This document shows positions 24,116 through 61,689 of a stretch of DNA of 64,000 nucleotides, piece by piece. The stretch is from assembly GCA_044892525.1 (NCBI GenBank), contig CM097885.1:12774001-12838000 (forward strand), given 5' to 3'. The notes beneath the pieces are model-generated. The model searched no databases. It worked only from the letters and a program-made list of their open reading frames with translations, and was not told the origin of the DNA. The translations under genes and the position numbers were made by a program. Each line of letters begins with the position of its first letter. The first letter of the stretch is position 1. This DNA comes from Schmidtea polychroa. Its lineage: Eukaryota.

Positions 24116-25118
24116 GAATTTTATTAAATCAGCTCAATTAATGTAAATTAATGGTTTTAAATAAATTGAATTTGTTTTGTATTATTACATATTCTGCAAC
24201 ATAGACAAATTTGTATGTAAATATTCATAAATAAGATTTTGAAATTTTACATTATAATTTTATAAACCATTTACTTTTATTTCTATTTCTAAAATTTGTT
24301 AATTTCCCAAATACAACATACAAAAAGAATATTTTTCAATTAAATCTTTAAATATATCTTTTAAAAAATTCCAAAACATTTTTATTAATTGCAAAGTTTG
24401 GGGATTCCGTTAGATTTTTTTAGGTAATAAATAGTAAATAAATAATCGAAATTAAAACAAGATATTTTCCCAAATAATTTATGTTAACAAACTGACAAAT
24501 GGATTTACATAAATTTTTAAATCAACAAATAAAAATAATTCGTATTCTTTATTGAATTTTACAAAATTAAAATTGAAAATCGATTAAAAAGTTTAAATTT
24601 TAAAATTCATCAATTATAAAAATGTTTTAACATGAATTTATGGAAGAATTTAATCAATAATTTCGATTTCCAATTTTCCCATTATTTGATTGGTCAGCAT
24701 TTTGAAATATTTCAATCAATCAGATATTATCGATTAAATAGTGCTACAAAAATTAAATGCAAATAATTTGATCTTTCATTCATTTTCCGTCATAGATTGA
24801 AATTATGATAAAATTTGATGTTGGAAACTTGACAGATGAATTCGTAAAAATGTCTTGATCCCTAAAGTTGCAACAATAAATTATTTTTAAAAATAAAATT
24901 TAATGAATAATGTTCCACAAACTAATTAAGATGTAATTGATTAATCTATACTTTAAATAATATTTACTGGAAACATTCGAATAATGCAGAATTATATTTA
25001 GAAAAATTTTAAAAAAAACTTTGAAAATTTAATGTTTTGAAATATTTCAAGTCTCGTTTTTCGAGGGTTGCATATATAAAAATAATAAGTACATACAAGT
25101 AGGTAGATAGTGGCGTAC

Positions 25119-25159
25119 GGGAACAATTACCCCCCGGGGGGGGGGGGTAAATTGTTCCC
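25119..25159. other. Subterminal hairpin GGGAACAATTA-Cn-Gn-TAAATTGTTCCC (mirror copy at ~61370-61407)
   Basis: Inverted repeat read directly, about 21 bp inside the terminus. Confidence 0.8.
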
Positions 25160-25229
25160 AACTTTTTATTACGCCATTGTTCCCAACTCATTTTTTTGCT
25201 TTCAGGGATTTTTGGTCCAAATTTTTTTT

Positions 25230-59300: not shown

Positions 59301-61428
59301 GTAACTAGTTGTAAGTATTTGGTATCAGGTAACTGGTTGGTTGGTTGTTTTTGGTTGTTAGTATCTAGTTGTAGGTACTTGGTATCAGGTAACTGGTTAA
59401 TTGGTAGGTGGTAGCTAGTTGGTTGTAGGTACTTAGTAGCAGGTAACTGGTTGTTAGTAACTAGTTGTAGGTATCTGGTTGTTGGCGGTTGTTAGTACTT
59501 GGTATCTAGTTGGTTGCTATCAGGTAACTAGTTGTTAGTAACTAGTTGTAGGTATCTGGTTGTTAATACATGTTCGTAAGTTACTGGTTGTTGGTACTAA
59601 GTTGTTGGTTTGTTGTTGAATTATTATTAAAATTTGTCTTTAAAAAATATTTCAAAAAAATTTTCATTAAAAATTATCTTAAAAATTTCCATCTAAAATT
59701 AACATTGAAAAATATTTCATAAAAATCTCCATTAAAAATTAACTTAAAAAATTATTCCATAAAAATTTCTATTAAAAATTACTTAAAAAATTATTTCATT
59801 AAAATTTTCATTAAAAAATTTCAATTCTCAAACACCTATTATTTCAACTTTTTGTTAATAAATTTTAAAATCTTACTTTAATTTACTTTAATTTACTTAT
59901 TTAAAAATTATTACTTTAAATTTTTTTTACCATTGATTACTTAATTTTAAAATTTGGACCATTATTTACTGTAATTTAATTTTTAAGAACCTTAATTTAC
60001 TTTAATTTAATTTTTAGAACCTTAATATACTTTAATTTTAAAATTTGAGCCATAATTTACTGTAATTTAATTTTTTAGAACCATTATTTACTTTAATTTA
60101 ATTTTTTAGGACCATAATTTACTTTAATTTTAAAATTTGAGCCATAATTTACTGTAATTTAATTTTTTAGAACCATTATTTACTTTAATTTAATTTTTTA
60201 GGACCATAATTTACTTTAATTGAAAAATTTTGACCATTAATTACTTTATTTCGAAAATATGAACCTTAATTTACTTATTTTGACCATAATTTACTTTAAT
60301 TTAATTTTTTAGGACCATTATTTACTTTAATTTAAAAATTTGGACCATTATTTACTGTAATTCAAAAATTTGGACCATTATTTACATTAATTTAATTTTT
60401 AGAACCATAATTTACTTTAATTTAATTTTTAGAACCATAATTTACTTTAATTTAAAAATTTGGACCATTATTTACTTTAATTTAATTTTTAAGAACCATT
60501 ATTTACTGTAATTCAAAAATTTGAGCCATAATTTACTGTAATTCAAAAATTTTGACCATAATTTACTTTAATTGAAAAATTTACCACGTTTTTTAGTGTA
60601 GACCACCTTTTTCTCAGGACCAAGGAGACCCACCTTAATTTAATTCGAAAAATCCATGCTTTTTTAGTGATAGTCGGATTTTTGTATTGAAAATATCCTG
60701 AGACCTTAAATTACCATGCTTTTTTACTGGTAGTCGGATTTTTGTATTGAAAATATCCTGAGACCTTAAATTACCATGCTTTTTTATTGAAGACCACCTT
60801 TTTGTATTGAAAATATCCTGAGACCTTAAATTACCATGCTTTTTTACTGGTAGTCGGATTTTTGTATTGAAAATCCCAGGACCATCGAGACCCCCTCACT
60901 ATAGTGTGAAAATTCCATGCTTTTTTAGTGGTAGTCGGATTTTGTATTGAAAATCCCAGGACCATCGAGACCCCCTCACTATAGTGTGAAAATTCCATGC
61001 TTTTTTAGTGGTAGTCGGATTTTGTAATGAAAATCCCAGGACCATCGAGACCCCCTCACTATAGTGTGAAAAATCCACGCTTTTTTATTGGTAGTCGGAT
61101 TTTTGTATTGAAAATCCCAGGACCATCGTTTTTGTATTGAAAAAATTTTTTTGTATTGAAAATCCCAGGACCATAGAGACCCCATCACTATAGTGTGAAA
61201 ATTCCATGCTTCTTTATTGAGACCACCTTTTTCTATTGAAAAAATTTTTTTTGTATTGAAAATCCCAGGACCATCGAGACCCCCTCACTATAGTCTAATA
61301 AAAAAAATTTGGACCAAAAATCCCTGAAAGCAAAAAAATGAGTTGGGAACAATTGCGTAATAAAAAGTTGGGAACAATTTACCCCCCCCCGGGGGGTAAT
61401 TGTTCCCTTACGCCACTATCTACCTACT
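53315..61428 (-). repeat. Arm R2 (8.1-kb right terminal inverted repeat)
   Basis: Reverse complement of L1 with longer GT-rich and 31-bp repeat blocks; ends CTACCTACT. Confidence 0.92.
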
Positions 61429-61689
61429 CATACACAATTTATCCATATACTCTAAAATTTTAATTATATTTTTAATTATTATTATTAATTGTTGTTGAAC
61501 TATTGTTAAAAAATAACTTTTTTACAATTTTATATTTTTTAACAAAATTTAAAAAAAAAGAAAATTATTGAAACTGGGCCCAATATATTTTTAAATGTTG
61601 ATAATATTAATTTAATTATCTAATAAATTTAAAAATTTGAAATAACTTAGATTTTTATGAATGGAATTAAAATAGAATACACATGGATA

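Follow-up and report, generated by a model that had tools for sequence, protein, structure and literature searches.

The 64,000-nucleotide stretch of Schmidtea polychroa DNA analyzed here (the window; unprefixed coordinates are window positions) lies on contig 1 (C1) of a 781-Mb assembly, and coordinates prefixed C1, C2, or C3 refer to contigs of that assembly. The window carries a 36,331-bp gene-less element whose ends and target site resemble those of Polintons/Mavericks. The element is a direct dimer of a palindromic 19.6-kb unit with the layout listed below. The best reading, drawn by analogy, is that this unit works like a snap-back, helper-dependent viral genome and represents a variant of the non-autonomous Polinton.

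25092 to 25097, no strand: left target-site duplication (TSD), CATACA; the left flank matches only itself in the assembly
25098 to 61428, no strand: whole element, direct dimer of the palindromic gene-less unit
25098 to 32363, plus strand: arm A1, 7,266 bp, left-type outer arm of unit 1
32364 to 36575, plus strand: core 1, 4,212 bp, unpaired interior of a nested element; part of both arms in free beta palindromes (defined below)
36576 to 42587, minus strand: arm A2, right-type arm of unit 1, without its outer 2,117 bp
42586 to 42587, no strand: dimer junction, 2-bp microhomology (TG)
42586 to 49081, plus strand: arm A3, left-type arm of unit 2, without its outer 846 bp
49082 to 53314, minus strand: core 2, 4,233 bp, inverted relative to core 1
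53315 to 61428, minus strand: arm A4, complete right-type arm, 8,114 bp
61429 to 61434, no strand: right TSD, CATACA

Ends, Target Site, and Coding Content

The two flanking hexamers match at six of six positions, for which the chance calculated at the local base composition is about 1 in 1,000. The termini are perfect inverted copies over 20 bp, and the outermost bases read AGTAGG. A preliminary description of this DNA had reported a CATACA TSD around exact inverted ends, outer arms of 7.3 and 8.1 kb, and the absence of a long open reading frame (ORF). All three points were confirmed; the arms measure 7,266 and 8,114 bp, and the longest stop-to-stop frame within the element is 103 aa. An ORF scan and tblastn searches with 16 Polinton ORFs of this genome detected no pPolB, retroviral-like integrase, capsid, ATPase, or protease gene in the element. 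The sole tblastn match is 15 aa long and derives from the junction of a chimera. The arms also exceed the 100–1,500-bp range of Polinton terminal inverted repeats (TIRs). In both gene content and arm length, the element therefore falls outside the autonomous Polintons/Mavericks.

The preliminary description had also suggested looking for an empty-site allele with a single CATACA. Flank searches of the assembly revealed neither such an allele nor a paralogue of the site; the sole match to the left flank was the flank itself, and an old dispersed repeat makes up the right flank.

Architecture of the Dimer

The element had been described as a 36-kb palindromic element with a 4.2-kb core. A core of 4,212 bp is indeed present, but self-alignment reveals four arms and two cores, arranged as A1-core 1-A2 joined to A3-inverted core 2-A4. 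The cores differ by 3 substitutions and 2 AAT-repeat indels, and a tally from the alignments gives about 9 substitution events between the units over 16.7 kb. Deletions of 51 and 19 bp are private to arm A1. Up to arm position 2243, the markers that vary group A1 with A3 and A2 with A4; at arm positions 3790 and 6938 they instead group A1 with A4 and A2 with A3. This switch indicates that one core was flipped, together with its inner arms, by an exchange between arm positions 2243 and 3790. A head-to-head duplication of the unit was ruled out because the outer markers pair A1 with A3 and A2 with A4.

At the dimer join, both inner ends are trimmed, and no N is present. Because the junction lacks an intact terminus, it is not an integrase product. 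Positions 42440–42740 were compared with short contigs from four public runs. None bridges the junction among the 32 matches listed of about 46,600, a result swamped by repeats from hundreds of related copies. The 36-kb dimer form is a single instance found at this locus only, and its size is a secondary doubling rather than a family trait. The dimer probably arose within the chromosome. The simplest route to it, a break followed by joining of sister chromatids or of alleles, preserves the TSD.

Anatomy of the Unit and a Nested Satellite

Two families are distinguished here: alpha, which has the outer ends of the focal element, and beta, which has AGTAGT-type ends. The unit combines both.

25098 to 26545, plus strand: outer part of arm A1, resembling the ~1.4-kb TIR of gene-bearing Polintons; contains the terminus and 80–100-bp, 30-bp, and 13-bp arrays
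26546 to 31396, plus strand: satellite-specific non-coding modules of A1, collinear with other satellites and not in the interior of two coding elements
about 30898 to 31396, plus strand: remnant of the family's normal central spacer, the terminal section of these modules
31397 to 37557, plus strand: nested beta satellite 1, 6,161 bp; both AGTAGT ends are intact, the inner TIRs are ~970 bp long, and mirrored flanks replace a TSD
34184 to 34568, with its mirror at about 51110 to 51495: conserved core block, starting with a piece resembling the 7SL Alu domain
48099 to 54281, minus strand: nested beta satellite 2, 6,183 bp, a complete second copy

Arm positions 1–1447 are 75–78% identical to the TIR of coding elements L079 and L063. 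In contrast, arm positions 1450–6300 and the core have no match inside the two gene-bearing elements examined. The earlier proposal that huge TIRs have replaced the coding DNA is thus correct insofar as the element is gene-less with Polinton ends, but only the outer ~1.45 kb matches the helper TIR, and the remainder is satellite-specific non-coding sequence. Nor is the 4.2-kb core the element's own center; it is the interior of the nested second satellite, and it forms part of both arms in free-standing beta palindromes. Two of these, 14.7 and 15.2 kb long, have ordinary 6-bp TSDs (C1:203.76 Mb and C2:82.73 Mb).

The beta terminus starts at arm position 6300. One 28-bp flank, mirror-imaged, borders all four beta ends, and no TSD is found there. 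The usual central spacer of the alpha family is 0.3–1 kb long, and in 7 of 10 other satellites it runs on beyond the beta insertion point. The mirrored flanks and the continuous spacer elsewhere indicate that beta landed in the alpha spacer and that one host side was then replaced by a mirror copy.

When the focal core was compared with two beta palindromes, 7 of 67 70-bp windows showed zero differences, all of them within the GC-richer block at 34184–34568. This block may be a selected cis element or encode a small RNA. Fold z-scores of −0.85 and 0.0 give no support for a structured RNA in it. The 7SL Alu-domain-like piece at its start scores 29.6 bits against Rfam RF00017, below the gathering score of 70, and is identical in 7 of 9 copies. 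A separate motif of ~86 bp (30397–30482, 32895–32983, and further copies) has 12 matches in the window, is mostly 88–100% conserved, and is common to alpha and beta satellites. It was not found inside the coding element at C1:79.20–79.22 Mb and is a candidate packaging or promoter signal.

Copies of the Satellite in the Genome

The terminus pattern has 915 matches genome-wide (446 forward and 469 reverse; control, 0), and all 30 terminus loci that were fetched begin at the same base, with varied flanks. Thirty-six facing pairs account for 72 of the 100 terminus matches listed, the other 28 being unpaired. An exact 6-bp TSD flanks 30 of these pairs, and its sequence differs among the 30 sites; three more pairs have one mismatch, and three have no TSD. 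As judged from the outer 4 kb of each end, the pairs comprise 27 gene-less satellites, 3 canonical coding elements, 4 coding palindromes (2 with pPolB and 2 ATPase-side), and 2 elements that are satellite at one end only. Interiors were read for 11 of the 27 satellites. Seven scanned interiors contain no Polinton ORF and no frame longer than 158 aa, two short satellites are fully covered by their end stretches, and one of two further interiors holds a nested coding Polinton. No element with a DDE transposase was found to share these ends; the coding elements among the 36 pairs and 16 regions carry Polinton genes. A single DDE_1 fragment lies inside a 10-kb satellite.

The common ends and 6-bp TSDs of these copies agree with the preliminary description, and its assignment of the element as a non-autonomous Polinton satellite is supported by gene-bearing Polintons with the same ends and 6-bp TSDs. 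On this sequence evidence of dispersed copies, TSDs, and shared ends, the focal unit is very probably such a satellite.

In the shared module, arms of different elements are 89–99% identical, whereas the two arms of one element are 99.8–100% identical in 6 of 7 cases. Because identity within elements exceeds identity between them, the mirror appears to be renewed in each lineage. Divergence between left and right termini was considered as an insertion clock and rejected, since coding copies with near-identical proteins differ at 1–7 of 170 terminal sites.

Exact motif counts genome-wide (control, 0 each) are 2,593 for the satellite arm, 214 for the capsid gene, 1,116 for pPolB, 769 for beta ends, and 1,199 for the beta core. 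By such motif counts, gene-less copies are about five- to sixfold commoner than capsid-gene copies; a rough extrapolation suggests that they occupy some tens of Mb, or a few percent of the genome.

Coding Polintons with the Same Ends

Candidate helpers share the terminus and the ~1.4-kb TIR with the satellite, are 16.2–17.9 kb long, and have 6-bp TSDs.

C1:79204895-79222378, C2:147686330-147704191, and C1:266021425-266037632: same-ended coding elements
L079, L064, L068, L070, L153, L154, and L156: copies with an interrupted integrase frame; other proteins 95–100% identical

Their proteins include pPolB (PF03175), a Pox_A32 ATPase, an rve/chromo integrase, and mu/pX-like, TBP-like, and RING proteins. 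A 408-aa ORF has a feature score of 0.98 to DJR-domain clusters, in which PF21738 is found on 14–30% of members; this is a lead from features and not an alignment. The preliminary description anticipated an autonomous partner with integrase, pPolB, ATPase, major capsid protein, and protease. The same-ended copies retain a long open pPolB frame, the ATPase, and a capsid-like frame, but their integrase is stop-interrupted, and a protease was not detected. Both an uninterrupted integrase and a Peptidase_C5 domain occur in a Polinton whose ends are different. The TBP-like ORF (PF00352) occurs in three Polinton lineages (L079, 2853–3329; L149, 8620–9054; L078, 914–1360).

Palindromes and Chimeras Elsewhere

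Mirrored architecture is not confined to gene-less copies. Among the 100 pPolB matches listed, 60 form 30 outward-facing (diverging) pairs, and no converging pair was found. By extrapolation, capsid-less polymerase palindromes probably number in the hundreds. One at C3:32532190-32547704 (L073–L075) has pPolB in both arms, no capsid gene, a central beta-type fragment, and an intact 6-bp TSD; C1 has many loci of this kind. Besides the focal locus, mirrored flanks around a nested TIR element occur in the pPolB palindrome just described (C3:32.53 Mb) and at C3:82.91 Mb; a nested Polinton without mirroring retains its normal TSD. The body derives from the helper in the pPolB and ATPase palindromes but not in the focal arm and core, as compared with two coding elements. 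In some elements the mirror extends through the terminus, with 0 substitutions in 3,970 bp, and the TSD is kept. At C3:82897001-82947000 (L159, L058–L060, L160), the mirror spans at least 50 kb, and its identity falls outward. Three nested layers are visible at C3:82.90–82.95 Mb: an alpha satellite in a distant Polinton in another element.

Two satellite–helper chimeras, at C1:169.74 Mb and C1:4.72 Mb, are 15.2 and 16.0 kb long and have intact TSDs and 95–100% protein identity to coding copies. The intact TSDs point to exchange before integration. One of the two descends from the same composite as the focal unit, indicating that the alpha–beta composite was mobile. The closest relative, at C1:169.74 Mb, was considered as the asymmetric parent of a copy-back and rejected; it already has the same arm–core junction and is a chimera with helper pPolB.

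Length Distribution

Six canonical elements average 17.2 kb. Satellites (n = 27) have a median of 16.1 kb; 19 lie within 75–105% of helper length, 7 below, and 1 above. The one above is a 32.9-kb element with a nested insertion, which was rejected as a second dimer because a 17-kb Polinton, flanked by a TSD of its own, is inserted in it. For beta-ended pairs (n = 40), few of whose interiors were read, the median is 14.0 kb; pPolB palindromes are ~13.9 kb long. This convergence of different classes on similar sizes is suggestive; inheritance from founders is the alternative. That near-helper length is kept by selection for capsid packaging is a possibility we rate slightly below even odds.

The preliminary description placed the ~19.6-kb monomer at normal Polinton size. 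A 19.6-kb unit is present, but at 114% of local helper length it stands at the upper edge of the family, and the dimer amounts to 211%. The packaging idea consequently rests on the length distribution of the family and not on the focal copy. Three beta-ended pairs (C1:6859160-6887016, 7135603-7163684, and 24443657-24476091) span 27.9, 28.1, and 32.4 kb, roughly double the usual length, and may be dimers or nested insertions. The core motif is absent from the 28-kb beta elements.

Comparison with Known Systems

Polintons are given as 13–25 kb with TIRs of 100–1,500 bp (PMC10748475) or, elsewhere, as 15–25 kb (PMC6431247), with end motifs (AG)3 and (AGT)2 and 6-bp TSDs (PMC8097293). The focal unit resembles them in its 6-bp TSD, its AG...CT ends with short simple repeats, and its overall size, and the nested beta ends are exactly (AGT)2. 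It differs in being gene-less, in its 7–8-kb arms, in its 36-kb dimeric form, and in its AGTAGG ends, a variant of the published motifs. Named non-autonomous Polintons include Polinton-1N1_DR and Polinton-N1A_NV, and Tlr1 is sometimes so classed (PMC9341505, PMC11296320, PMC5499653). Like the focal unit as read here, they are trans-mobilized derivatives that keep Polinton ends. However, Polinton-N1A_NV has a capsid gene and Tlr1 has genes, whereas the focal unit has none. In anole, non-autonomous Polintons are apparently absent (PMC3014272). The nearest structural precedent in these sources is found in Pieris butterflies, whose Polintons have ~2-kb gene-containing TIRs and include polB-less copies that are still mobile (bioRxiv 10.1101/2025.02.07.637071). 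There, too, TIRs are lengthened inward by mirror duplication, but the extension is ~2 kb and coding, while that of the focal unit is non-coding and covers over three quarters of the unit.

Snap-back/copy-back defective viral genomes and helper-dependent ("gutless") adenovirus vectors retain nothing but their ends around a palindromic or stuffer body and need a helper (PMC13506859). Adenovirus genomes outside 75–105% of unit length rearrange (PMC4189039), and non-terminal inverted repeats cause replication-induced recombination (PMC2518115). The focal unit resembles snap-back or copy-back defective genomes in being palindromic, in keeping its presumed origin-bearing ends, and in having no coding capacity. 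Unlike snap-back viral genomes, the satellite copies are integrated in the germ line and diverged by up to ~11%, and the present helper contains no detectable source for the arm interior. The unit corresponds to only part of the definition of a defective-interfering genome: it exceeds the capsid gene in copy number, and interference with the helper and packaging are putative.

Drosophila FB/Galileo foldback elements and giant miniature inverted-repeat transposable elements (MITEs) have long modular TIRs of tandem arrays, gene-less copies, and rearranged arms. The focal unit is similar to foldback elements in its long modular arms; it differs in its 6-bp TSD and in ends shared with elements that encode pPolB, integrase, and capsid proteins rather than with a cut-and-paste transposase. 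A racket model of Polinton replication exists, and phi29 yields palindromic products. In the literature searched, exclusive of subscription journals, Repbase Reports, and supplements, no description was found of unit-length gene-less palindromic Polintons or of such elements outnumbering their helper. The parts consulted of 10.1101/2024.01.15.575659 and 10.1101/2022.07.12.499685 contain nothing on such satellites.

Proposed Origin and Alternatives

The common ends, 6-bp TSDs, coding partners, many dispersed copies, nesting, mirrored flanks, flip, and chimeras described above allow us to propose how the element arose. The unit would be a helper-dependent, gene-less Polinton genome whose ends serve as origins of protein-primed replication and as integrase substrates, with proteins probably supplied in trans by coding Polintons of the same genome. 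A beta satellite first inserted into the short spacer of an alpha palindrome, as the nesting shows. Its TIRs could then have served as an internal inverted repeat, allowing one alpha arm to be copied onto the other side and erasing the TSD. Template switching or panhandle repair may have carried out this copying while free linear copies were being replicated: protein-primed strand displacement gives single strands whose inverted repeats are expected to pair. Chimeras would likewise reflect template switches between co-replicating molecules. The 19.6-kb composite would next have integrated at CATACA and undergone head-to-tail duplication, probably through a break and a 2-bp-microhomology join between two copies, likely on sister chromatids or alleles. 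A crossover between inverted arms, at positions 2243–3790, would finally have flipped one core with its inner arms. We assign this complete account, from helper dependence through nesting, mirroring, integration, doubling, and flip, a probability of about 0.6.

Several observations weigh against this account. Free linear replication, use of helper proteins in trans, and packaging of the satellite are proposed by analogy; no free linear molecule, particle, or transcript was observed. In all 7 copies, which come from six same-ended elements, stops interrupt the integrase frame at one site, and no scanned ORF of the same-ended coding elements has a Pfam match to a protease; both findings leave the donor of these functions uncertain. 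Seven of the 27 satellites are shorter than 75% of helper length, and oversize forms with perfect TSDs exist: two coding elements of 26.7 and 22.6 kb (C1:67718022-67744750 and 67839002-67861599) and the focal element itself. The mirror of at least 50 kb could not fit into a 17-kb capsid, demonstrating that mirrors may arise or persist with no packaging involved. At the focal locus, 6 differences separate the outer 300 bp of one end from those of the other, yet the inner arms are almost the same; this pattern fits chromosomal conversion as well as template switching. One sampled element bears the right flank 6-mer of its neighbor, suggesting that chromosomal exchange occurs too.

These observations lead to the main alternative, foldback-type chromosomal remodeling. 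Drosophila foldback/Galileo TIRs and Y-chromosome palindromes are models for arm conversion after insertion. In such a scheme, Polinton integrase would mobilize the satellites like giant MITEs, mirrors would be both made and maintained following insertion, through TIR-primed break repair and gene conversion between arms, and the ~16-kb length would be inherited from founders without packaging. The borrowed 6-mer, the inclusion of flanking elements in the large mirror, and an outer-to-inner gradient of arm identity in several elements are consistent with this scheme, and the core flip is the expected outcome of an intrachromatid crossover. However, elements mirrored through the terminus still have a TSD, helper–satellite chimeras also retain theirs, pPolB pairs face outward 30 times versus 0, and distinct classes have similar sizes (alpha median, 16.1 kb; beta-ended, 14.0 kb; pPolB palindromes, ~13.9 kb). 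We consider it unlikely. A different concern is that the dimer is an assembly artifact within a real family: the tandem would then have been built from the alleles of a single 19.6-kb insertion, of which one carries a flipped core, or from a chimeric read through a palindrome. Palindromes are hard to assemble, identity between the units is 99.9%, self-identity in two other oversize elements is 99.7–99.9%, and the junction is unbridged among the contig matches listed, though repeats swamp that comparison. In contrast, the join is non-homologous (2 bp) and free of N, so it requires sequence present in a read; moreover, the units differ by substitutions and by the 51- and 19-bp deletions, and the assembly contains the left flank only once. 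An artifact is accordingly improbable. Finally, the doubling may predate integration: two flip isomers would have been joined while free and then inserted as one 36-kb unit. This scenario differs from our account only in the doubling step. The perfect TSD around the entire dimer and the other oversize TSD-flanked forms are compatible with this route, and undersized adenovirus vectors make direct and inverted dimers (PMC4189039). Chromosomal duplication preserves the TSD equally well, though, and no second dimer was found among the 27 sampled satellites, making joining of free molecules also unlikely. If it did take place, integration would have proceeded without passage through a capsid and with no size limit near 17 kb.

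Extending the helper-dependent account to the whole genome yields a more tentative proposal, which we regard as possible but rather less than an even chance. About a thousand gutless, capsid-sized palindromes with one or the other end type, several hundred that carry the polymerase alone, and chimeras with helpers might constitute the defective-interfering ecosystem of an endogenous DNA virus, all produced by template switching at embedded inverted repeats and kept close to unit length by packaging. Were this so, they would provide genomic evidence that animal Polintons replicate as free linear molecules by strand displacement and pass through particles, and the focal dimer would capture nesting, the copying of mirrors, and the flipping of isomers at one moment.

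Significance and Additional Observations

What is known of how Polintons replicate, and of whether those of animals are packaged, has been deduced mostly from gene content. In gene-less copies no reading frame maintains length, so the constraints of the replication cycle can be read directly from how long these copies are, from their mirrors, and from their chimeric joins. The 36-kb dimer, as a single case, matters mainly as a readable record of nesting, mirroring, doubling, and flip. Long palindromes in a genome can also flip, duplicate, and seed rearrangements. This species is suited to a direct test for satellites in free and particle-protected DNA.

Other features were noted. The 26.7- and 22.6-kb coding elements consist of repeated ATPase–integrase–capsid halves without pPolB, with the internal join beside a nearly complete terminus. 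Another alpha-type satellite has its right end at window positions 1–2442; this sequence shares ~80% identity with the focal arm and continues into L051. On the minus strand at 23088–24023, 1 kb to the left of the insertion, lies an ORF with an IS1595/Merlin-like transposase domain (PF12762).

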